Below are positions 5,527 to 25,886 of a stretch of DNA of 64,000 bases, piece after piece. This stretch comes from Candidatus Latescibacterota bacterium. GTDB taxonomy: Bacteria > Latescibacterota > UBA2968 > GCA-2709665. The translations under genes and the position numbers were made by a program. The notes under the pieces are model-generated. The model did not search any database, was not told the origin of the DNA, and saw nothing but the letters and a program-made list of their open reading frames with translations. Positions within the stretch are counted from its first letter, which is position 1, and every line of letters begins with the position of its first letter. Where the stretch lies: the NCBI GenBank assembly GCA_963667175.2, contig CAXXXF010000003.1, positions 64,001 through 128,000 of the forward strand. Reading direction: 5' to 3'.

Positions 5527-6717
5527 TCAGTCCTTGTACGGATCGAACACGTCAGCACCGGCCATAGCCACTCCCAACGGCGTCAATGTGTGCATCACGT
5601 CAATACAACCCTCGTGGTTTTCGATCACATCGTCAATGCGGCGATAGCAGTGCGGGCTTTCGTCCGTTCCGCCACCCCTCAACTGAACGCCCATAGGACG
5701 TATCCACTCGTGCATCATATCCATCGAAATCTCACCTGGCTTTTTCAAAATACGGCGCCCGCGCTTACGCCGCCACTTTCCAGCCGCCCGCGTGCGGCTC
5801 ATCACACGCCCCGCACCGTGGATCGTCGAATACAACGCCTGCTTGTTCTCGTCCGTATCCTTGCCGCGAATGATGTAGCTCTTGTCTCCCATCGAACCTC
5901 CAACGAAAGACCACTGACCGGGGAAGGAAGGCGTGGAACCCTTACGGACGACGTGATACGTCTGGCCGTTGTGTTCCTCTTCCCACGAAAAGTTGTGGTG
6001 ATTATTAACAACGTCTTCCACCACGCCGCCGATAATGTGGGCCGCCTTGCCACAAACCCACTTGCGACCCTTCTCCGCCAGAAGACCGGCCAGTTCCATG
6101 CACGCCCTGTACTCCTGGCCCAGGTCCGAGTCAACATCCAACAACGCGGGCGCCACGTGCATACCGTCCTCACCGCCTGCTGCCTTGATGTAATGCGTGG
6201 CGATCTTGTGGCCGAAGCCCCGCGAACCGAAGTGAACGCCTACCCACACGCGCCCTTCCTCATCTTCAAAAACGTCCACGTAATGATTGCCGGAACCTAC
6301 TGTGCCAAGCTGGCCCTCCGCCAGTCGCTTCAGGGTCTTCGCCGGCTCGATGTCCCACGCCGGATGGCCGCCCTGCTCGAAGATTGGATCGTCGACCGTC
6401 TCTTTGTTCTTCATACCAATCCCGAACGAGATTTCGTCAAATATCGCATCCATGATCGCGGCAATGTTCGCCTTCACGTGGCCGAGCGGAGAATCGAGGC
6501 GTACGGCGGTGTTGCCGCAACCTATGTCGAAACCCACACCCGATGGAGAAACCTTGTCAGGATACGCTACAACGCCACCTATGGGCATCGAATATCCCAC
6601 GTGATGATCTGCCATAAGGGCAGCGACGGAACCCGTCGTACGACAGCGGATGATCTGCTTTACAGCCTCCGGCGTGGGAGGCCCGAACACCAGAACATCA
6701 TCGACAATCTGTGCCAT
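5527..6717 (-). CDS. rtcB: RtcB family RNA ligase
   Basis: GFDIGCG, GSGNHY, HFGSRGFG, NHHN, HGAGR and DESPHCYR metal-binding/guanylylation motifs. Confidence 0.92.
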   Translation of the reverse strand: MAQIVDDVLVFGPPTPEAVKQIIRCRTTGSVAALMADHHVGYSMPIGGVVAYPDKVSPSGVGFDIGCGNTAVRLDSPLGHVKANIAAIMDAIFDEISFGIGMKNKETVDDPIFEQGGHPAWDIEPAKTLKRLAEGQLGTVGSGNHYVDVFEDEEGRVWVGVHFGSRGFGHKIATHYIKAAGGEDGMHVAPALLDVDSDLGQEYRACMELAGLLAEKGRKWVCGKAAHIIGGVVEDVVNNHHNFSWEEEHNGQTYHVVRKGSTPSFPGQWSFVGGSMGDKSYIIRGKDTDENKQALYSTIHGAGRVMSRTRAAGKWRRKRGRRILKKPGEISMDMMHEWIRPMGVQLRGGGTDESPHCYRRIDDVIENHEGCIDVMHTLTPLGVAMAGADVFDPYKD

Positions 6718-6948
6718 CACGATTCCTCGTATTCTTCATGAAATTTGTCATCATCCAACACTTCGGCTTTGTGGCCATCTGCTGCAAGCCAACTTCCTTC
6801 CGGGAGTTCACAACGCAGAGTTACGCGGTGATATGAATTGATGGTACCAAGAATCAGAACCCCTTTGAATTCCGCCTGATTTATTACACATTGAGTTTGG
6901 AGCCGCCGCCCGGCAGGTTATCTTGAGTGCAAGCACTGGACTCTTTCG

Positions 6949-7668
6949 TTAGGGATCAACCCGATGGTAATACCAGATATTGGGCTCGTTGTAGGCGCCT
7001 CGATTACTCTTGAGATCGATATTGATCGGAACCAAGCCCTGGGGAATACAGTAGGATCCTGTCTCCCGGAATTGCATTTCGGTCCAGCTCTCCCATTCGG
7101 ATATTGACCCGTTGACCGAAACGGCTGCGTTGGTAAAACCGAGCCTCTCGCCGCCAAGCTCTTCGTGGACTCGAAGCCAGGGATCCCACAGGCGCCCCGT
7201 CTCGTCCCTTCGATCCGCGTAGGATTCGATGGACTCCTCCGGTTCCTCGTGCTTCAAACTTGGCCTGACTGGCGCCAGGACACCGTGCAATCCATATTTC
7301 TGTGACAGGTTGCGCATTTCGAGCAAGATCGTTCGGCTAAGTCCCTGGCGTCGATATTTCGGTCTCACAAGAACACCAAGCGCGCAGAGTACACCAGTGG
7401 ACATCAGAGGCCAACGGGCTGAGTAAACAACTTCATCTATGGTTGACGGCGGTGGCAGGCCTGCATTCCATTCAAACGGGACCGAAAGTCCTGCGGCCAC
7501 CAGATTGCATCCATCAAGGACAAGCAGCTGAAATCTCTGAAACACGGTATAGATCGAAGACCAGTTTCGCACATCGGCATTAAGGAGAAACCTTGGCCAG
7601 GTGGAATCGTTCAACTCCTTTAATGCAGCCCACACCTGTGGCGATCTGTTCAACGTTATCAGTTTCAT
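6949..7668 (-). CDS. GNAT-like acyltransferase
   Basis: VRPKYRRQGLS motif A plus APVRPSLKH...DPWLRVHEELGG...WESWT...Y.EPN.W family motifs. Confidence 0.8.
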   Translation of the reverse strand: MKLITLNRSPQVWAALKELNDSTWPRFLLNADVRNWSSIYTVFQRFQLLVLDGCNLVAAGLSVPFEWNAGLPPPSTIDEVVYSARWPLMSTGVLCALGVLVRPKYRRQGLSRTILLEMRNLSQKYGLHGVLAPVRPSLKHEEPEESIESYADRRDETGRLWDPWLRVHEELGGERLGFTNAAVSVNGSISEWESWTEMQFRETGSYCIPQGLVPINIDLKSNRGAYNEPNIWYYHRVDP

Positions 7669-12244: not shown

Positions 12245-13054
12245 CTACTTCTCGACGACAAAGACGACATGGTCGGTTGTATCCCTGAACTGAGGCAACT
12301 CCGACGTCTTAGGTGCGAATTCCAGGACATTTTCGTATGCTTCGGGTTCGTTCTCTCTCAGCGACTCGAGAAATGGCGCCATGCCTCCGATAAAACCCTC
12401 AGCGCCTGCGTATGTGACAATTCGCAGTCCTGTGTCCCGGAGTTCATTGCCGGCGATCTCAGGGTTGGACCAGTGACACTCGGTGAAACCGGACAGTTCG
12501 TGATCTTCAAAGGCCTGTTCGCCCAGCATGCTCCGCAGAAAAGCGGGATTTCGGAAACGCTTCGGGAAATCGACGATACCGCTTCTGAGCAAACCCCACG
12601 AATTCAGGAAGGCGACAATTGCCCTGCCGCCCGGTTTCAAAATGCGAATCATCTCCCTCAAAGCTTGTGCTCGATCATCCCTCTCGATCAGGTGATAGAG
12701 CGGACCGAGAAGGAGGGCCGCGTCGAACGACTCGTCGGCAAAAACGCCCAGATCGCGTGCGTCTCCTTGTATAAATCCGGTTGCGCCAACTCCTTCCAAT
12801 GCAAAGGCACGCTCCGCTCGCTCCAGCAGTTTTCCGGAGAGGTCGAATAACGTCATCCTGTACCCGCGCCTGGCGAGCTCGATGGAATAGCGACCCGGTC
12901 CGCTCCCGATGTCGCACACTTCGCCGCCGCCTGGGAAGTACTTCTCGATGAGGCGCAACGTGGACGCGAATTCGATTCGCGAAAGCCCCGTATCCAGCCG
13001 CTCCCACTCGCGATCAGGCGCTGAATCGTAGTAGTCCCGGACGTGCGTGCGCAT
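12245..13054 (-). CDS. Class I SAM-dependent methyltransferase (paralog A)
   Basis: DIGSGPGRYS, LLLGPLYHL, LKPGG. Confidence 0.88.
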   Translation of the reverse strand: MRTHVRDYYDSAPDREWERLDTGLSRIEFASTLRLIEKYFPGGGEVCDIGSGPGRYSIELARRGYRMTLFDLSGKLLERAERAFALEGVGATGFIQGDARDLGVFADESFDAALLLGPLYHLIERDDRAQALREMIRILKPGGRAIVAFLNSWGLLRSGIVDFPKRFRNPAFLRSMLGEQAFEDHELSGFTECHWSNPEIAGNELRDTGLRIVTYAGAEGFIGGMAPFLESLRENEPEAYENVLEFAPKTSELPQFRDTTDHVVFVVEK

Positions 13055-14180: not shown

Positions 14181-15023
14181 TCAAGCATCCTTAATCGCCT
14201 GCGACGAAGTGCCTGACTTCTCGACGACAAAGTGAACATGGCTTGTTGCATCTCTGAACCCAGGCAATTCCGACGTTTCCGCAGCGAATGCTTCGATATT
14301 TTCGTATGCCGCCGGTTCATTCTCCCTGAGCGTCTCGAGCAGCGGCGCCATGCCTCCGACAAAGCCCTCCGCGCCCGCATAGCTGACAATCCGGAGGCCC
14401 ACCCCTCGGAGTTCCTTGCAGGCGATCTCAGGATTGGACCAGTGACACTCCGTGAAACGCGGGCGTTCACGGTCTTCAAAGGTCGTTTCGCCGAGCAAGC
14501 TCCGCAGAAAGGAGGGATTGCGGTAAAGGTGAGGGAAACCGGCCACTCCCGTTCGGAGCAAACCCCACGCATTGAGGAAGGCGACAATTGCCCTGCCGCC
14601 CGGTTTCAGAATACGAACCATCTCACTCAACGCCTGAGATCGATCAGGCCTCTCGGTCATGTGATATAGAGGACCGAGTAGCAAGGCGGCGTCGAACGAT
14701 TCGTCCTTGAAGACGCTCAGATCACGCGCATTTCCATGAATGTACGCCGTTGCGTTGATGCCTTCCGATGCAAAGGCACGCTCTGCCCGCTCCAGCAGTT
14801 TCCCTGACAGGTCGAACAACGTCACCCGGTACCCGCGTCTGGCGAGCTCGATGGAATAGCGGCCCGGTCCGCTCCCGACGTCGCACACGTCTCCGTTCGC
14901 GGAGAAGTATTTCTCGATGAGGCGCAACGTGGACGCGAATTCGATTCGTGAAAGCCCCGTATCCAGCCGCTCCCACTCGCGTTCCGGGGCCGAGTCGTAG
15001 AAGTCTCTGACGTGCGTGCTCAT
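14181..15023 (-). CDS. Class I SAM-dependent methyltransferase (paralog B)
   Basis: Colinear and highly similar to 12245-13054 (EWERLDTGLSRIEFASTLRLIEKYF is identical). Confidence 0.88.
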   Translation of the reverse strand: MSTHVRDFYDSAPEREWERLDTGLSRIEFASTLRLIEKYFSANGDVCDVGSGPGRYSIELARRGYRVTLFDLSGKLLERAERAFASEGINATAYIHGNARDLSVFKDESFDAALLLGPLYHMTERPDRSQALSEMVRILKPGGRAIVAFLNAWGLLRTGVAGFPHLYRNPSFLRSLLGETTFEDRERPRFTECHWSNPEIACKELRGVGLRIVSYAGAEGFVGGMAPLLETLRENEPAAYENIEAFAAETSELPGFRDATSHVHFVVEKSGTSSQAIKDA

Positions 15024-18806: not shown

Positions 18807-19064
18807 TCAGGATATCGCGGGCGATACATCCCTGACATGCAATATCTCGCCTGCCATAGGTGCACGCACGGCGGAATCTTCCAGGGTCAGAACCGCGATC
18901 GTGGTACCGCGGGTATCCACAAACTCTATCTCCGAGGCTTTTTCATCGTCGTATCTATGAACCACCGTCCCCACGTCGCCTGTCACCAAACCGTGTTCCA
19001 AAATAGACTCCTTGAGAACGACCAGATCCAATTCAGTCATATTGAGTCGATCCTCCTTGATCAT
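18807..19064 (-). CDS. DUF4926 family protein
   Basis: ELDLVVL...GL..GDVGTVVH.Y....EIEFV...G.TIAVLTL. Confidence 0.85.
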   Translation of the reverse strand: MIKEDRLNMTELDLVVLKESILEHGLVTGDVGTVVHRYDDEKASEIEFVDTRGTTIAVLTLEDSAVRAPMAGEILHVRDVSPAIS

Positions 19065-19393
19065 GCTGGATACGCTGTAACCAAACGCGGCTTATCCGAA
19101 CTCGGCTCAACAATCCAAACTGTGCGAATCCGAACGTCACGACCCGACGGGGTAATTACGTTGCCATCCACAACATACTTGGCGCCGTGATGTGTATGCG
19201 CAAATTCGGAGACCTGCTCGTTACCTGCAATGGATGCCAAATCAGCAGCAAGGACCGAAGGTTCCTCTGGCTGATATCCGACACCCCGGAAGAATCGTGA
19301 CTTAGTACGACCCACGGTGTGCACGTCAGAAAGCAAGTATTGCCTGACTTTTCGCATCGGTATGAGGGCATTATCGCCATTCGGCAATTTCAT
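19061..19393 (-). CDS. DUF6883-like putative nuclease toxin
   Basis: MKLPNGDNALIP.RKV..YLLS..H.VGR.K.RFF..VGY...TVWIV......PRLVTAYP; ATGA overlap with DUF4926. Confidence 0.8.
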   Translation of the reverse strand: MKLPNGDNALIPMRKVRQYLLSDVHTVGRTKSRFFRGVGYQPEEPSVLAADLASIAGNEQVSEFAHTHHGAKYVVDGNVITPSGRDVRIRTVWIVEPSSDKPRLVTAYPA

Positions 19394-19424: not shown

Positions 19425-19658
19425 TTATTCCGCGGCTGAAATCTTCTCGTTGTTGGATGTCTGCAATCCTTCGGGCAAAGGATCGGCGTGTTCTCTGTAG
19501 GATTCAATCAGCTTTCGCGCCACGTCCTGTGCGATTTCAGTGATTTCGGCCACCGTTCTTCCCTGTGCGACCAGGCCCGGAAAGTTATCCGAAGTCGCCA
19601 GAAATTGGCCGTTCTCAACTCTCTCCACCTGAAGGTTCAATCTATATTCTGCTGACAC
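19425..19658 (-). CDS. HicB-like antitoxin, orphan
   Basis: FLATSDNFPGLVAQGRTVAEITEIAQDVARKLIES. Confidence 0.78.
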   Translation of the reverse strand: MSAEYRLNLQVERVENGQFLATSDNFPGLVAQGRTVAEITEIAQDVARKLIESYREHADPLPEGLQTSNNEKISAAE

Positions 19659-19728: not shown

Positions 19729-22700
19729 CTACGCAACAACCGCGGCGGCTTTTCGTTTCAGCGCGGGCAGCAGTTCGTCGGCCGCTCGTTCGAGGGCCGC
19801 CATCGCCTCATCCACGTTCTCGAGGTCCCCTTCGCGCGCCATGGTTTCCAGCCGCAACGCCGCCTCCACCGTCGAATCGGCAAGGAAGACGGCCGCCGAA
19901 CCCTTCAGCGTATGGGCCGCGCGCCGCAGCAGCGTGGCATCGCGGTGATTGATCGCCCGTTTCATTTCCTTCAGGCGCCTGGCGTATTCGCTGACAAACA
20001 GCCCCGCCAGTTCGCCCAGGATCGCCTCGTTTCCGCCAACCTGTTGCACGGCCCCCTGCCAATCCAGTGCGCCGCCGTCAACGTCGGGGTCCTCCGGCGG
20101 TGCACCGTCCGAAGAAACGTCGTTCTCCACAATATCGTAGAGGTCTCCCGCCCGGACGGGCTTGGGGAGATAATCGTCCATCCCCTCTTCCAGGCACCGT
20201 TCCCTGTCTCCCTGCATCACGTGGGCCGTCATCGCCGCAATTCGAACGTGTTCCCCGGTCGACCGTTCCCGCTCCCTGATCATCCGGGTTGCCTCCAGCC
20301 CGTCCATCTCCGGCATCTGGACGTCCATCAGGATGAGATCGAACGTCTCGTTCTCCAGCGCATTGAGCACTTCCCTGCCGTTATTGACGGACGTAACCCG
20401 GTGGCCGCGGGGTTCGAGCAGGTCCACGATCACTTTCTGATTGACCGCGCCGTCTTCTGCCAGCAGAACCCGGCGTCTGGCGGCGGGCGCTAACGGTTCG
20501 GCCACTGTCGGGACATCCACGGCCTCTACGACGCTTACGTCGAGCGCCGATAGCGTGGCATCGAGCAGGTCGGACTGCTTGACCGGTTTTGTCAGGCATC
20601 GGGCAAGTCCCAGCGCGTCGCATCGCACGACGTCGTGCGTTCTCCCCGCGGACGAAAGAATCAGTATCGGCACATCCTTCGTCGCGGGATCCTGCCTGAG
20701 GCGCTCGGCCAGCGCGAACCCGTCCATATCCGGCATCACCGCGTCCAGCAGAAACAGACTGTACGGCAGACCCGCCTCGCCGGCCTCCCGAACCGTGTCC
20801 AGCGCCGCCGGCGCCGAATCCGCCACGGCGATTTTCATACCCCAGGTCCCGAGCATCTCCTCGAATATGAACCGGTTTGTGCGGTTGTTGTCCACCACCA
20901 GCGCACGGAGACCCACCAGGGTCTGGAGGTCGGCCGCGGACCGCTTCACGGACTGAGGCTGGGCCTCGAAGTGCGCCGTGAAGTAAAACGTACTCCCTTT
21001 GTCCCGTTCGCTCTCCACCCACATTCGTCCGCCCATCATCGACGCCAGTTGAGACGAGATTGCCAGGCCCAGACCGGTTCCGCCAAACCGCCTGGAAGTG
21101 GAAGAGTCCACCTGGCTGAAAGAGTCGAAAATGAGCTGCTGGTCTTCCGGCGAGATGCCGATGCCCGTATCCCGGACAAAAAACCTCAGACTGACCTTTT
21201 CTTCATCACGGGAGTCCACCTTGACGTCAACCAGCACATCGCCCGTGGTCGTGAACTTGATGGCGTTGTCCACCAGGTTGATGACGATTTGCCGCAAACG
21301 GCCCGGGTCGCCAACCAGCCTGTCGGGAACGTCCGGCGCGACGTGGCAGGCCAGTTCCAGCCCCTTCTGCGTTGCTTTGACCGCGAGAGTCTGCACGGTG
21401 TCTCCCAGCGTATCCCGAAGGTCGAAGCCGATCGATTCCAGCTCCAGCCTGTCCACCTCAAGCTTGGAAAAGTCGAGAATATCGTTCAGGAGCGCGAGCA
21501 ATGCCTCGGAAGACTGCCGGCTCAGCTTGAGGTATTCCCGCTGCTGGGGCGTCAACTCAGTGTTGCCCAAAAGCTCCGTCATGCCCATGATGCCGTTCAT
21601 CGGCGTCCGGATTTCATGGCTCATGTTGGCAAGAAACTCGCTCTTCGCCCGGTTCGCCTGCTCCGCGACTTCCTTTGCCGTCTGCAACTCCGCACCCGAA
21701 CGCTCCAGGGCCACGGTGCTCTTCTTCAGCGCTTCGTTCGCTTCACGCTCGGCGGAAGCTGTATTCTCGAGCTGCCGGTTCTTTTCCTGAAGCTGTATTT
21801 CGGCGTGCTTGCGCAGTGTGATATCCCTCACCGTGCCGATCATATGCACGGACTGCCCCGCGCTGTCGCCGAAGACGCGCCCCTTGTTTCCCAACCATCG
21901 GATCGTCCCGTCGGGCCATACAACGCGGTGCTCGACTTCAAAACCCATCCCTTCCTTTATCGTGCGCCGCACGGCGCTGCGGACCATTTCCCGGTCTTCC
22001 GGATGCACGAATCCATAAAACGCCTCGCGCGTACCTTCGAATTCCTCCGGCTTGAGACCGAACAACGGCGCCACCAGGTCCGACCAGACCAGTTCTCCGG
22101 TCAGCAGATTCGAATCCCAACTCCCCATGTGGGCGGCTTCCATCGCCAGCTTGAGCCGGGCTTCGCTTTCCCGCAAGGCCTGTTCCGAGCGCTTCCGTTC
22201 GTAGTCCAGATTGGCGAGCGACCGGGCGTACCACCAGATCAGGATATTCAGTGCGACGATCACCCCCAGAGAGAACAGCGACATACCCGACGCGAACCCC
22301 AGTATCACTTCGCCGTGAGGCCAGAGCCAACCCAGCGCCAGCGGAATCAGGAAGGCGGCCGGCAGCAGCCGGCGCGCCATCGAACCGCCTGCCGTCGAAC
22401 TGACAATGGTGGTGGTTGGTTCGAGGTCGGGCCGGGCCAGAAACACGCCAATGCACAACAGGCCGAAGGCAAGCGTTGTGACGGCGCTCATCTGGAGGTC
22501 CCACGTCACTTCTCTGGGGGAGAGCGTCAGATAGAAATGCCCGACCGCATAACCGCACGATACGATCGAGGCGGCAGACAGACACGTCTGTGCGGGCCAG
22601 GCATTCCCTCTGAACCGGATATGCCAGAGAAGCAAGGCCAGCCCGATCAGGGCGAAGTTACACGCTTCATTGCGCAACATATGCCCCGCGCCGGCGCCGA

Positions 22701-23001
22701 AACCGATAAATACAGGTCCCGCGCCGACGAGTTCCAGGGCCGCGAAGACGACGACAACCGCGCTGATTGCCTTGCCCAGGAATTGCCTCCGTGCTGAGGA
22801 ACTACCGCTCCGCAGCAGCCACAGCGCCACGCTTGTGAGCACGAACATGCCGGCTGTCAACAAAGACATCCATTCGGCCACGGGTGCGCTGACGAGCCAT
22901 CCTGAAAAGACCAGGATGGACAGCATCACAACGATCAGATTCGCCGTCTGCGCGGATACCGCGGCCAGCCGCAACAATCGAGGGTCCGCATAATCGTCCA
23001 T
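19729..23001 (-). CDS. Membrane hybrid sensor histidine kinase (multi-TM, PAS, HisKA, HATPase, 2 REC, HPt)
   Basis: FLANMSHEIRTPMNG H-box, NLVDNAIKFT, DTGIGI, GGTGLGL, two receiver domains (LLDAVMP, LMDVQMP), AAHTLKGS HPt. Confidence 0.95.
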   Translation of the reverse strand: MDDYADPRLLRLAAVSAQTANLIVVMLSILVFSGWLVSAPVAEWMSLLTAGMFVLTSVALWLLRSGSSSARRQFLGKAISAVVVVFAALELVGAGPVFIGFGAGAGHMLRNEACNFALIGLALLLWHIRFRGNAWPAQTCLSAASIVSCGYAVGHFYLTLSPREVTWDLQMSAVTTLAFGLLCIGVFLARPDLEPTTTIVSSTAGGSMARRLLPAAFLIPLALGWLWPHGEVILGFASGMSLFSLGVIVALNILIWWYARSLANLDYERKRSEQALRESEARLKLAMEAAHMGSWDSNLLTGELVWSDLVAPLFGLKPEEFEGTREAFYGFVHPEDREMVRSAVRRTIKEGMGFEVEHRVVWPDGTIRWLGNKGRVFGDSAGQSVHMIGTVRDITLRKHAEIQLQEKNRQLENTASAEREANEALKKSTVALERSGAELQTAKEVAEQANRAKSEFLANMSHEIRTPMNGIMGMTELLGNTELTPQQREYLKLSRQSSEALLALLNDILDFSKLEVDRLELESIGFDLRDTLGDTVQTLAVKATQKGLELACHVAPDVPDRLVGDPGRLRQIVINLVDNAIKFTTTGDVLVDVKVDSRDEEKVSLRFFVRDTGIGISPEDQQLIFDSFSQVDSSTSRRFGGTGLGLAISSQLASMMGGRMWVESERDKGSTFYFTAHFEAQPQSVKRSAADLQTLVGLRALVVDNNRTNRFIFEEMLGTWGMKIAVADSAPAALDTVREAGEAGLPYSLFLLDAVMPDMDGFALAERLRQDPATKDVPILILSSAGRTHDVVRCDALGLARCLTKPVKQSDLLDATLSALDVSVVEAVDVPTVAEPLAPAARRRVLLAEDGAVNQKVIVDLLEPRGHRVTSVNNGREVLNALENETFDLILMDVQMPEMDGLEATRMIRERERSTGEHVRIAAMTAHVMQGDRERCLEEGMDDYLPKPVRAGDLYDIVENDVSSDGAPPEDPDVDGGALDWQGAVQQVGGNEAILGELAGLFVSEYARRLKEMKRAINHRDATLLRRAAHTLKGSAAVFLADSTVEAALRLETMAREGDLENVDEAMAALERAADELLPALKRKAAAVVA

Positions 23002-23017
23002 TTCAGACCGTCCTATG

Positions 23018-24667
23018 CTATGGGAAGACGCCTCTCAGGAGCTTCGCCTGAGTCACGCGATGGATGCCTTCTATCAGCGCCGCTGTACGCATATCCAGCC
23101 CGTCGCGTTCGGACCGCTGCATTGTCCGCCGGAACGCGTGGAGCAATATCTGCCTGAGCCGCTCGTTGATCTCGTCGAGGGTCCACATATAATTCTGGGT
23201 GTCCTGCACCCACTCGAAATAGGAAACCGTAACCCCTCCGGCGTTTCCGAGCACGTCCGGAAGAATAAACACGTCCTTGTCTTTCAGGATTTCGTCGGCC
23301 TCCAGTGTGGTGGGGCCGTTGGCGCCTTCGGCCAGAATCCTGCATGAGACGTTGTCGGCATTGTCCACGGTGATCTGATTCTGCAGGGCCGCGGGTACAA
23401 GAATGTCGCACGGGATCTCGAGCAATTCCCGATTGCTCACGGCATCTCCGCCGGTGTAACCTTCCAGAACCTGGTTTTCATCCGTATGTTGCAGCAGCGA
23501 ATCCACGGACAGACCATCTGGGTTGTAAATGCCGGTGGTCACGTCGCTCACGCCCACGAGCCTGACTCCGCAGGCGTTCAGAAACCGCGCGGCATTGCTC
23601 CCCACGTTCCCGAACCCCTGGACGACGGCGGTCGCGTTGTTCAGTTCCATCCCGATATGCCTGGCCGCTTCCTCCACGAGATACACCAGCCCCCGTCCCG
23701 TCGCCTCGCGGCGGCCTTCCGAGCCTCCCAGCACCACAGGCTTGCCGGTTACGACCGCGGGTACCGTATGTCCCGTCTGGTGGCTGTAGGTGTCCATCAT
23801 CCACGCCATGACGTGTTCGTCCGTGCCCATGTCGGGCGCTGGGATGTCCTTTTGCGGTCCGATCACGTCGATGATCTCCGACGTATACCGTCGCGTCAGG
23901 CGCTGCAGTTCGGGACGTGAGAGTACGGTGGGGTCGATACGTACCCCTCCCTTGGCGCCGCCAAACGGCAGGTCCATCAGGGCGCATTTCCAGGTCATCC
24001 ACATGGCCAGCGCGGTTACTTCGCCCAGGTTCACGTCGTGATGGTATCGGACGCCGCCCTTTGTGGGACCCATCGTCAAGAGGTGTTGAATCCGGTATCC
24101 GGCGACCGTTTCCACGTATCCGTGTTCGTCCCGCCGGAACGGAAAGGTAACGACGTGGGTGCGCTGGGGAAACAACAGCCGCTGCCGGATGTTGTCATCC
24201 AGCTCCATCAGGTGGGCTGCCTTGAGAAACTGCTGCTGCGCCAGCCGGAACATGGGCGATTCCCATTCGGCGTGCTGCGCCCGGCTGCGCTCCACGGCGT
24301 ATCGGATGGACCTCACCAGCAAAGCGCCGTTCATATTCGACTTGACGAGATAATCTTGCGCGCCCGCTTCGACGGCCCGCGCCGCGAGTTTGATATCCTT
24401 CACGCCGGACAGGATCACAACCGGCAGGTCCGAATGTGCCGCGCGGACCCGGAAATACGTATCCAGGTCCTCGCTGTCCGGCAGCACGAGGTCCAGCAGC
24501 AGCAGTTCGTACGCGTCCGCCGCAAGCCGCTTCAGCCCTTCCGTGAGCGTATCCGCCGAATCCACCTCGAACTCCGGGCCCTCGGATTTGGCGAGCAATT
24601 CCCGAATCAGGCGGGTGTGAAGCGGATTGTCCTCAATCAGCAGCGTCTTCAGGATTTTCCTTTGCAT
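23018..24667 (-). CDS. gdhA: Receiver (REC) domain-glutamate dehydrogenase fusion
   Basis: REC: LIEDN, LLDLVLP, LSG, DYLVK. GDH: GPTKGGVRY, MTWKCA, PFGGAKGG, DIPAPD, VTGKP, ATGRG, GFGNVG, EGANGP, NAGGVTVSYFEWVQ. Confidence 0.92.
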   Translation of the reverse strand: MQRKILKTLLIEDNPLHTRLIRELLAKSEGPEFEVDSADTLTEGLKRLAADAYELLLLDLVLPDSEDLDTYFRVRAAHSDLPVVILSGVKDIKLAARAVEAGAQDYLVKSNMNGALLVRSIRYAVERSRAQHAEWESPMFRLAQQQFLKAAHLMELDDNIRQRLLFPQRTHVVTFPFRRDEHGYVETVAGYRIQHLLTMGPTKGGVRYHHDVNLGEVTALAMWMTWKCALMDLPFGGAKGGVRIDPTVLSRPELQRLTRRYTSEIIDVIGPQKDIPAPDMGTDEHVMAWMMDTYSHQTGHTVPAVVTGKPVVLGGSEGRREATGRGLVYLVEEAARHIGMELNNATAVVQGFGNVGSNAARFLNACGVRLVGVSDVTTGIYNPDGLSVDSLLQHTDENQVLEGYTGGDAVSNRELLEIPCDILVPAALQNQITVDNADNVSCRILAEGANGPTTLEADEILKDKDVFILPDVLGNAGGVTVSYFEWVQDTQNYMWTLDEINERLRQILLHAFRRTMQRSERDGLDMRTAALIEGIHRVTQAKLLRGVFP

Positions 24668-24719
24668 GGTTTCGACGTCCGTGCGGTTTCATCAGTACTG
24701 TTTGAAGGAAGTATTCGAA

Positions 24720-24748
24720 TATTTAGTCCTATTGCCGATTCGTGTCAA
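24720..24748 (-). promoter_or_regulatory. Candidate sigma70 promoter for the REC-GDH/kinase operon
   Basis: TTGACA-N17-TAAATA on the - strand, about 50 nt upstream of the ATG; the -10 match is weak. Confidence 0.45.
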
Positions 24749-24802
24749 GTCCAAAGCGTTGAATGACACGCTTTTGTGCGATTTGCCTCTCAACGTGTAC
24801 GG

Positions 24803-24833
24803 AAAAAAGGCAGGGTATCTCCGATGCCCCGCC
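24803..24833 (-). terminator. Intrinsic terminator after the aldo/keto reductase
   Basis: GGCGGGGCATC-GGA-GATACCCTGCC followed by TTTTTT on the - strand. Confidence 0.72.
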
Positions 24834-24902
24834 CGTCTTTCGCACCCAAGACGGTCCCATTGAGTAAGACGAATGGATCCGCTTCGGGTTGCGCGTTGTC
24901 GG

Positions 24903-25886
24903 TCACCGGCGTTCGCGCCGAAGGTCCAACCAGTTCAGTTCCTCCGGCGTCAATTGGATTCCCATCGCTTCCTGATTCTGGCGGCATTCCTCGGCCGATC
25001 TGCATCCCGACACCGTGAAGACGTTCAGAGGCTGGTTGAACAGATACGCGAGCGCGACCTGCGCCACGGTCTTTCCGCGCTCGCCGGCAAGTTCGGTCGC
25101 ACGTTGCAGTCGCGTGAAATTTTCTTCGTACCCGTAGACTTGGGCGCAACCCTCCGTCGTTTGTTTCGCCATCTCAGCGATGTTCTCTCGGCTCAGGAGA
25201 CCGGAGAAAAAACCCTGCGCCAGGCTGGACCAGGAAAACACGGGCATCTGCGACTTTCGGTACCACGCCCGTTCCTCGGCCCCGCGCGGACCGGAGATAC
25301 TCAGACAGCCCTCCCAGATCTCATGCAGGCGCACGGCCAGACTGAAATTCGGGCTGCTGGCCACAAAGGGCCTCAGGCCTTGATTCCGCGCATACGAATT
25401 CGCCTCGCGAATCCGGCTCACCGACCAGTTGGACCCGCCGAAGGCGCGGATTCGCCCCTCCGACACGTGTTCGTTCAACGCCTCCACCAGCGGTCCGACC
25501 GGCGCCTCCGGATCGTCCCGGTGAAGCAGATAGAGGTCGATATAATCTGTCCGGAGCCGTGCCAGGGAATCGAACAGGTCGGACGCGACGTCGAACACCG
25601 TCACCCTGCGGCGGCGGTCGGGGTTGGGGTGGCCGCCCTTGCTGAGGATAAATACATCGCTTCGATTGCCGCGCCGGTCCATCCAGGCCCCCAGCGCCCG
25701 CTCCGCCTTTCCGTTTCCATAGACGGGCGCGGTATCGAAACTGTTGCAGCCCTCCGCCCGGATCCCGTCAAGAAGATCGATGCTCCACTCGAGATCGTCC
25801 GTCGACACCATCAGCGTGCCCTGTACAAGACGGGAAACCGGTTTGTCGATTCCCTCGATACGGCCGTATTTCATCGCGGGTTCCAT
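24903..25886 (-). CDS. Aldo/keto reductase
   Basis: FDTAPVYG, SKGGH, SLARLRTDYIDLYLLHRD, GGSNW; start may be 25874. Confidence 0.92.
   Translation of the reverse strand: MEPAMKYGRIEGIDKPVSRLVQGTLMVSTDDLEWSIDLLDGIRAEGCNSFDTAPVYGNGKAERALGAWMDRRGNRSDVFILSKGGHPNPDRRRRVTVFDVASDLFDSLARLRTDYIDLYLLHRDDPEAPVGPLVEALNEHVSEGRIRAFGGSNWSVSRIREANSYARNQGLRPFVASSPNFSLAVRLHEIWEGCLSISGPRGAEERAWYRKSQMPVFSWSSLAQGFFSGLLSRENIAEMAKQTTEGCAQVYGYEENFTRLQRATELAGERGKTVAQVALAYLFNQPLNVFTVSGCRSAEECRQNQEAMGIQLTPEELNWLDLRRERR

Follow-up and report, generated by a model that had tools for sequence, protein, structure and literature searches.

The 64,000-nt stretch of DNA analyzed here (the window), which spans positions 64,001 to 128,000 of contig CAXXXF010000003.1 from a Candidatus Latescibacterota bacterium, contains a pair of adjacent minus-strand genes that may place glutamate dehydrogenase (GDH) under the control of a phosphorelay. 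The upstream gene (23018-24667) encodes a 549-residue protein in which a receiver (REC) domain is fused to a GDH, as judged from Pfam, NCBIfam and comparison with homologues, and the downstream gene (19729-23001) encodes a 1090-residue hybrid (unorthodox) sensor histidine kinase, identified by Pfam and NCBIfam. The 16-nt spacer between them (23002-23017) carries an AGGA Shine-Dalgarno-like motif ahead of the kinase ATG, and a consensus scan found no terminator-like site within it. Both open reading frames (ORFs), with the kinase start 16 nt downstream, were found where an initial annotation of this DNA had placed them. We consider it probable, at roughly 65%, that the two genes form a signaling unit, i.e., a His-Asp-His-Asp relay that would end on the GDH and alter its function. 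This interpretation, which was that of the initial annotation, is supported by the comparative evidence, namely the domain architecture, the presence of the kinase as a neighbor, and the retention of H462, D893 and H1030 in the kinase and of the functional residues of the receiver.

REC-GDH is a previously uncharacterized kind of enzyme-output response regulator. Full-text literature searches, whose reach stopped short of subscription journals and bioRxiv supplements, returned no characterized example, in agreement with the initial annotation, which knew of no characterized response regulator with a GDH output. Table 1 of the 2009 P2CS database paper (PMC2716373) does include EC 1.4.1.3 (GDH) among the enzymes “probably” present in two-component proteins, and thus, going by that table, the architecture itself had already been catalogued.

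The REC-GDH protein

Pfam recognizes three domains in the 549-residue protein: Response_reg (residues 9-116; 64 bits, against a cut-off of 30.2), ELFV_dehydrog_N (167-296; 177 bits) and ELFV_dehydrog (314-546; 261 bits), with both dehydrogenase profiles being matched over their full lengths (profile positions 1-129 and 1-241, respectively). The receiver domain extends from beta1 to the end of alpha5 (residues 5-133; 24269-24655, minus strand, as are all parts of the two genes), with boundaries taken from Pfam, the alignment and an AlphaFold2 model. It contains the acid pair E12-D13, the phospho-acceptor D59 within LLDLVLP (codon 24491-24493), S87, Y106 and K109. Among 121 sequences (the query and 120 homologues), E12, D13, D59 and K109 are invariant, position 87 is Ser or Thr in all but one, and position 106 is always Tyr or Phe.

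The GDH part (residues 138-549; 23021-24256; Pfam and structure alignment) contains the motifs GPTKGG, MTWK, GGAKGG, DIPAPD, GFGNVG and GGVTVS, so that every REC and GDH motif named in the initial annotation, from E12-D13 through GGVTVS, can be read in the translation. In glutamate dehydrogenases the lysines of GPxKGG, MTWK and GGAKGG, the Asp of PAPD and the Ser of GGVxVS act as substrate or catalytic residues. These positions are filled by K203, K227, K239, D279 and S482, respectively, with GFGNVG serving as GxGxxG, and none of the five residues is altered in 33 of 35 sequences, nor in 9 of 12 of a second set that includes the window. Residues 136-549 align end to end with the GDH of Thermotoga maritima (1b26; E 2e-137). 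Solved GDH chains match at E values of 1e-137 to 1e-119, all starting at query residue 132 or later, and none of them extends into the receiver. The protein scores below the cut-offs of the NCBIfam equivalogs GdhB_Halo (NF041398; 502.1 versus 620) and GdhA_Arch (NF040817; 475.5 versus 750), and no NCBIfam model for the REC-GDH fusion was matched. By its motifs and profile coverage, the protein is an intact receiver joined to a complete ELFV dehydrogenase of the Glu-specific type.

In the AlphaFold2 model (mean pLDDT 88.2, pTM 0.77), a canonical (beta-alpha)5 receiver ends in an alpha5 helix of 20 residues (114-133), which is followed by a four-residue break, E134-W135-E-S (24257-24268; alignment and model), and then by the first GDH helix (138-154). 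Confidence across the stretch of alpha5, linker and first GDH helix is moderate (69-71). E134 and W135 are invariant in a 44-sequence alignment. Foldseek aligns the model with hexameric GDHs over approximately 405-420 columns (TMt 0.84-0.95; 0.92 for 1b26 and 0.95 for 3k8z), and none of its matches covers the receiver and the GDH together. Complex prediction between REC (1-132) and the GDH part (136-549), run without controls, gave a score of 0.00, which carries no weight for or against docking of the receiver on the enzyme.

Integrity of the fusion gene

An assembly or gene-calling error could in principle have merged a GDH gene with a small gene for a response regulator, since stand-alone REC genes of similar type and unfused GDHs both exist. 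The reading frame is, however, continuous, and both junctions, of which the initial annotation had singled out the REC/GDH one for checking, are bridged by contigs of two studies, one of which may itself be the source of the assembly. The REC/GDH join is crossed by DNA contigs of both (X1 record 8 and X2 record 16; 23982/23986-24900), and the gap between the GDH and kinase genes is crossed by X1 record 5 (21472-23674) and X4 record 31 (22777-23477). In addition, a product of 547-552 residues recurs in dozens of complete or near-complete genomes, and the E-W linker is invariant. We therefore reject the artefact, the probability of which is close to nil.

For the region 19729-24900, five sequencing runs hold at least half of the sampled words; four of these are labeled sponge metagenome and come from one study, and contigs from two of the four sponge runs (X2 and X4) match the window at 99% or better in places. 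Contigs of a relative are also contained in a coral metatranscriptome library.

The hybrid kinase

The kinase contains, by Pfam, PAS_3 (residues 304-391), HisKA (452-515), HATPase_c (564-678), two Response_reg stretches and Hpt (997-1077). Its N-terminal membrane region (approximately residues 1-265; 22207-23001) is defined by hydrophobicity: residues 1-280 contain at least five strongly hydrophobic segments and give no Pfam match even at E≤1. This is followed by the PAS domain (282-394; 21820-22158) and by the HisKA/HATPase_c core (20968-21648), in which Pfam and the ortholog alignment identify the phosphorylatable histidine as H462. Of the two kinase receivers, receiver 1 (D753; 20557-20901; PF00072) has the acid pair D-N, and its Ser/Thr position is Val or Ala in 5 of 15 orthologues; it may have a modulatory rather than a relay role. 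Receiver 2 (20128-20469) retains E849-D850, D893, T925 and K947 in all 15. The HPt domain (H1030; 19771-20013) completes the protein, and H462, D893 and H1030 are conserved in all 15 aligned neighbor kinases. The best NCBIfam matches are BarA and TorS, far under cut-off (488.9 versus 890 for BarA), and the kinase falls below the cut-offs of the BarA, TorS and ArcB equivalogs. Its domains and conserved His-Asp-His residues nonetheless mark it as an unorthodox hybrid histidine kinase.

The sensor modules of the neighboring kinases vary: the window's kinase has a membrane region and PAS, those of Halomonas have GAF and PAS, those of Lujinxingia and Microbulbifer have CHASE, and that of a metagenome-assembled genome (MAG) of Pirellulales has extra receivers. 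The kinase core (residues 430-1090) is 84-90% identical to that of neighbor kinases from the window's genus and from a metagenome locus (L095), and 41-57% identical in other lineages; the membrane region is 33-45% identical to neighbor kinases of the phylum-level group of locus L002. Within the window's own genome, by comparison, no paralogue exceeds 30% identity over the kinase part. Support along the backbone of a kinase tree is poor (9 of 20 inner branches are starred). In this tree the window's kinase falls together with the kinases of the G173 group (support 81), matching the GDH tree; the agreement is compatible with joint transfer of the two genes, but is not proof of it.

Neighborhood and genome content

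The initial annotation had suggested examining whether a hybrid kinase is a conserved neighbor of the fusion, and this is what we find: of 58 distinct loci, 49 have a full HisKA-HATPase-REC-REC-HPt kinase next to the fusion and on its strand. The loci are not independent (20 are from one group, 8 from the window's genus and 12 from one family), and L113, lying on the same contig as L001, is counted once. The remaining loci comprise one with a REC-HPt protein, six with neither and two that could not be assessed. In the genome collection, which yielded 12 fused loci, six have the kinase, either downstream (L001, L002, L006 and L013) or upstream (L004 and L008), four do not (L005, L009, L010 and L011), and two lie on contigs that are too short (L003 and L007). 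The kinase is immediately downstream in 31 of 34 loci from two phylum-level groups, the others being L124, which has REC-HPt only, and L127 and L128, which have neither. It is also adjacent in all 11 further Halomonadaceae loci, in the metagenome locus L095 and in the window. At L008, a separate-frame HPt-like stretch occurs after the kinase. At L124, found in an 8.1-Mb genome of the window's family that also carries an unfused GDH, the gene after REC-GDH (6678-7487) encodes a 269-residue REC-HPt protein without the kinase part. L095 (92%) was the one useful locus from a metagenome scan with the N-terminal 170 residues; two other matches were unrelated receivers of approximately 30% identity and were set aside.

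The window's genome (5.52 Mb, 95% complete) has a single PF00208 match, which is REC-GDH itself, and hence the fusion is its sole ELFV dehydrogenase; the same is true of genome G173. There is likewise a single PF01627 match, in the adjacent kinase. Of 17 PF00072 matches in the genome, three are inside the window, and these are the two receivers of the kinase and the one of the fusion, which agrees with the earlier statement that the window contains no other response regulator. Glutamate synthase and glutamine synthetase are also present, and the regulated step is therefore less likely to be the sole route to glutamate than a switch that turns glutamate breakdown, or assimilation at high ammonium, on and off.

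Distribution and descent

The combination of REC, ELFV_dehydrog_N and ELFV_dehydrog is found in all of the best 120 of 8000 scored homologues (539-570 residues, 68-90% identical). Of 17 representatives at 50% identity that were scanned, all drawn from the best 150, seven combine these domains (P0121, P0122, P0123, P0133, P0137, P0241 and P0242), and the other ten lack a Pfam receiver. The domain-architecture search thus shows that the fusion is not unique to this assembly, which was a concern of the initial annotation, but occurs in several phyla. Database sources label the protein generically, as “response regulator” or [quoted passage not shown].

Within the window's genus, the fusion is present in 14 of 14 other species genomes (90-95% identical), and it occurs in two further genera of the family (75-77%). 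In another two of the family's genera, and in the sister family, only unfused GDHs (44-54%) occur. Over the whole phylum, the fusion was found in 23 of 168 genomes and 6 of 49 genera. It is nearly universal (32 of 33) in the phylum-level group of L002, for which the NCBI title is Gemmatimonadota, and is found in 12 of 251 Halomonadaceae. Samples of Planctomycetota (1 of 301) and Gammaproteobacteria (1 of 400) each gave as sole positive the genome on which the search was centered. Named carriers include Halomonas stenophila, Lujinxingia vulgaris, Pontibacterium, Amphritea, Microbulbifer, and MAGs of Myxococcota and Pirellulales; of these, Halomonas stenophila CECT 7744, Lujinxingia vulgaris TMQ2 and Pontibacterium granulatum are cultured, going by the record titles.

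In a quick-search tree of the GDH part (81 rows), all fused GDHs are set apart from 48 unfused ones by a single branch, the support of which is 99%. Three rows labeled as unfused sit on the fused side. One, P0162, is a fragment that starts within the receiver, and the other two, L012 (7959-9257, 432 residues) and L014 (7947-9305, 452 residues), are receiver-less GDHs that are 73% and 66% identical, respectively, to the GDH part of the fusion and are best read as secondary losses of the receiver. L014 adjoins a gene for a 2-oxoacid dehydrogenase E2. Outside the window's genus the fusions are 64-77% identical. Its patchy occurrence and the identities between phyla (64-73%) point to horizontal spread of the fusion.

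Degenerate, unlinked and split forms

Several observations weigh against the relay that we favor, and are collected here. In the literature searched, we found no biochemical or genetic data on REC-GDH. Evidence from RNA is weak: the contigs of a relative in library X20 (90-99% alike) reach into both genes and include the REC/GDH join (24166-24658), yet the intergenic gap is bridged by none of them, and carry-over of DNA is possible. A further caveat comes from the copies in which the GDH part is degenerate. Three Halomonadaceae loci (L160-L162) keep the downstream kinase and an intact receiver, and have L, Q, G and A at K203, K227, D279 and S482, respectively. Similar GDH losses are found in four divergent cluster representatives, P0122, P0133, P0137 and P0242, again with an intact receiver and E-W linker. 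The substitutions among degenerate relatives include K203 to L, M, F or V and K227 to Q or R, among others. Judging by these residues, GDH catalysis cannot be the whole of the selected output in such copies, and since the copies keep the kinase, catalysis may not be the only output of the system.

These copies bear on a second explanation, according to which the GDH-fold domain mainly reads glutamate, 2-oxoglutarate or NAD(P)H, or binds a partner. Receiver phosphorylation would then govern the interaction, or would draw phosphate away from the kinase, with catalysis being an ancestral remnant in some lineages. In its favor, receiver and linker outlast the GDH residues in the four representatives just named, and the degenerate copy of the three Halomonadaceae is still followed by the orthologous kinase. 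The genomes of the latter each hold a separate GDH of the NADP-GdhA type (NF006929; 729.5 bits, cut-off 536), which is absent from the two intact-fusion genomes examined. There are also precedents for GDHs with regulatory roles. B. subtilis RocG/GudB act on GltC or GltAB, and PDB entry 7mfm is among our fold matches. According to PMC9570180, T. thermophilus GdhA is a GDH subunit with a regulatory and no catalytic role. Against this explanation, the main clade, including the window, keeps every catalytic and nucleotide-binding residue that was checked, at an overall identity of 64-77% between lineages beyond the window's genus. In addition, the fusion is the only ELFV dehydrogenase of the window's genome and of G173, and must therefore supply whatever GDH activity exists there. 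The separate GdhA is just 30% identical to the fusion's GDH, which, together with its NADP-GdhA type, weakens the idea of mixed hexamers with the degenerate copy. We regard this explanation as rather unlikely for the fusion in general. For the degenerate copies themselves, which are small in number, the pattern suggests that a GDH-fold domain can take on a non-catalytic role under kinase control.

The kinase family is also more widespread than the fusion. Kinase cores that are 50-56% identical occur in genera without the fusion (21 of 21 genomes of g6 and 30 of 31 of g25), and 103 of the 168 genomes of the phylum have a similar kinase (E≤1e-100). Occurrence of the kinase was accordingly rejected as a specific co-occurrence marker. 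Elsewhere, such kinases adjoin a stand-alone REC, an Hpt protein, a REC-HATPase_c_2 protein or a 209-residue REC protein.

Five of the six kinase-less loci are degenerate in one domain, three in the receiver and two in the GDH. The former are the Planctomycetota clade L009-L011, in which D13 is replaced by G or S and T87 by I; the latter are L127 (K239 to M) and L128 (K203 to L and K239 to M, along with W135 to S). The sixth, L005, has intact residues, and just 670 nt of its downstream flank are known. At L010 (3489-7831) and L127 (7610-9619), kinase-less loci from different phyla, a CMAS-like (cyclopropane-fatty-acid-synthase) gene is located upstream of REC-GDH on the same strand, with DUF1295 also present at L010.

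The retention of the fusion in L009-L011, despite loss of D13 and T87 and with no adjacent kinase, would fit a third explanation, in which the receiver is a structural or oligomerization element that is never phosphorylated and the kinase signals to other regulators; the other partners of the kinase family would fit as well. This is hard to reconcile with the invariance of E12, D13, D59 and K109 (121/121), with the kinase adjacency at 49 of 58 loci, or with a genome whose only HPt domain is in this kinase and a window with no other regulator, and we consider it quite improbable.

A related genus without the fusion presents a split arrangement. At all four loci examined, a stand-alone REC of 123-129 residues is encoded 2-3 nt upstream of the kinase (L140, 7944-8315, minus strand; L141, 5165-5554; L142, 5152-5523; L144, 4645-5028). 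Over residues 1 to approximately 126 of the fusion it is 43-50% identical; it has the characteristic motifs of the fused receiver and stops just before the linker. An unfused GDH is found elsewhere in three of the four genomes examined, and none was found in the fourth (G126). By position and motifs, the stand-alone and fused receivers are a classic split/fused pair, which supports the fused receiver as the partner of the kinase and suggests that the split receiver may act on GDH in trans. This comparison too has a point against it, in that the fused REC is 46% identical to a REC-SpoIIE protein encoded in a different genome, matching the 43-50% of the stand-alone form, and the orthology of the latter therefore rests on gene position.

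Proposed mechanism and relation to known systems

In the relay that we favor, the hybrid kinase, with its membrane and PAS regions, would autophosphorylate on H462, and the phosphoryl group would pass to D893 in kinase receiver 2, to H1030 of the HPt domain, and from there to D59 of the GDH-fused receiver. In receivers generally, the alpha4-beta5-alpha5 face changes upon phosphorylation. Because alpha5 lies on this switch face and only a four-residue break separates it from the GDH helix, we propose that the signal would travel via alpha5 (114-133) and the E-W junction into the GDH oligomer, where phosphorylation would re-position or pair the receivers and change activity via cleft closure or subunit packing. 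Phosphotransfer to D59, an effect on GDH activity, the sign of that effect and the signal sensed are all points that we infer from sequence.

A broader reading, to which we give even odds, is that a horizontally spread cassette puts GDH (the sole GDH of some genomes) under aspartyl-phosphate control, with unfused GDH being controlled in trans by a stand-alone receiver and the degenerate copies being phospho-switched pseudo-enzymes. Its trans component follows Rosetta-stone logic: as REC is fused to GDH in some genomes, the stand-alone REC would control unfused GDH in others.

Enzyme-output response regulators include CheB (REC-methylesterase), PleD and WspR (REC-GGDEF), RpfG (REC-HD-GYP) and REC-PP2C/SpoIIE proteins. 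A REC-SpoIIE example also turned up among the genomes examined. Like CheB, PleD, WspR and RpfG, REC-GDH has a canonical N-terminal receiver on a catalytic domain, a kinase gene nearby and a post-translational output. It differs in that their outputs act on signaling molecules or proteins, whereas its own is an oxidoreductase of primary metabolism that is normally hexameric, and in that its receiver, according to the model, is joined through alpha5 with almost no flexible linker. The kinase resembles BarA, ArcB, TorS and EvgS in its HisKA-HATPase-REC-HPt order and predicted His-Asp-His-Asp relay. Unlike these, it has two receivers and a multi-transmembrane N-terminus without an assigned family, and its relay is predicted to end on an enzyme in place of a transcription factor.

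GDH stands where carbon metabolism meets nitrogen metabolism, and its known bacterial controls are allosteric ligands, partner proteins or transcription. The GDH part of the fusion aligns over its whole length, with active-site residues present, with the enzymes of T. maritima (1b26), T. thermophilus (GdhA/GdhB, 3aoe) and B. subtilis (RocG/GudB, 3k92 and 3k8z). These solved hexameric chains of approximately 50 kDa lack an N-terminal receiver, and the known control of hexameric GDHs is by allosteric ligands, a regulatory paralogue or partner proteins. A functional parallel is GarA/OdhI, an FHA protein that is phosphorylated by Ser/Thr kinases and controls GDH as a separate protein. There, too, a kinase signal reaches the glutamate/2-oxoglutarate node post-translationally, but by Ser/Thr phosphorylation of a diffusible inhibitor, whereas REC-GDH would be phosphorylated on an Asp of the enzyme polypeptide itself.

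If the proposal is correct, this would be the first two-component system with a dehydrogenase of central metabolism as its terminal output. It would extend response-regulator outputs from signaling enzymes to core metabolism, and would greatly shorten the path by which a signal from outside or from the membrane reaches glutamate/2-oxoglutarate flux. The distribution of the module, which nearly all members of one phylum-level group and of the window's genus carry, which is sporadic elsewhere and which is represented in sponge-metagenome runs, makes it a candidate adaptive cassette; we speculate that ammonium and amino-acid supply fluctuates in sponge-type habitats. The presence of the module in cultured strains makes it readily testable, and the natural series of intact, receiver-degenerate, GDH-degenerate, split and unfused forms offers ready controls for the mechanism.

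Flanking elements and genes

Upstream of REC-GDH, a hairpin followed by a U-run (24803-24834, minus strand) lies 3' of an aldo/keto reductase gene (24903-25886; Pfam Aldo_ket_red) and is likely an intrinsic terminator. Its minimum free energy is -25 kcal/mol (z -3.16; none of 200 shuffles equals it), and its long loop accounts for its omission from the consensus terminator scan. The terminator claimed in the initial annotation is thus borne out, and it likely separates the aldo/keto reductase gene from the REC-GDH unit. The candidate promoter claimed there (24720-24748, minus strand) remains tentative: it has a perfect -35-like TTGACA (24748-24743), but the -10-like hexamer 17 nt downstream is weak, and a consensus scan of the minus strand upstream of REC-GDH reported no sigma-70-like site. 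The other neighbors (HIT, histidine phosphatase, methyltransferases, a GFO/IDH oxidoreductase and an M3 peptidase) are unrelated, and the REC-GDH and kinase pair therefore stands alone.

A Pfam search of the 77-residue ORF that follows the kinase gene (19425-19658) gave no match. Just 3' of the kinase is an overlapping pair of small genes (18807-19393, minus strand) for DUF6883 (110 residues) and DUF4926 (85 residues) proteins, which resembles small gene pairs of the mobile or toxin-antitoxin-like kind. Farther away on the minus strand, two methyltransferase ORFs (12245-13054 and 14181-15023) flank a sulfotransferase-like ORF; their Pfam profiles are nearly identical (Methyltransf_25/11, over the same residues), and they are probably the result of a local duplication.

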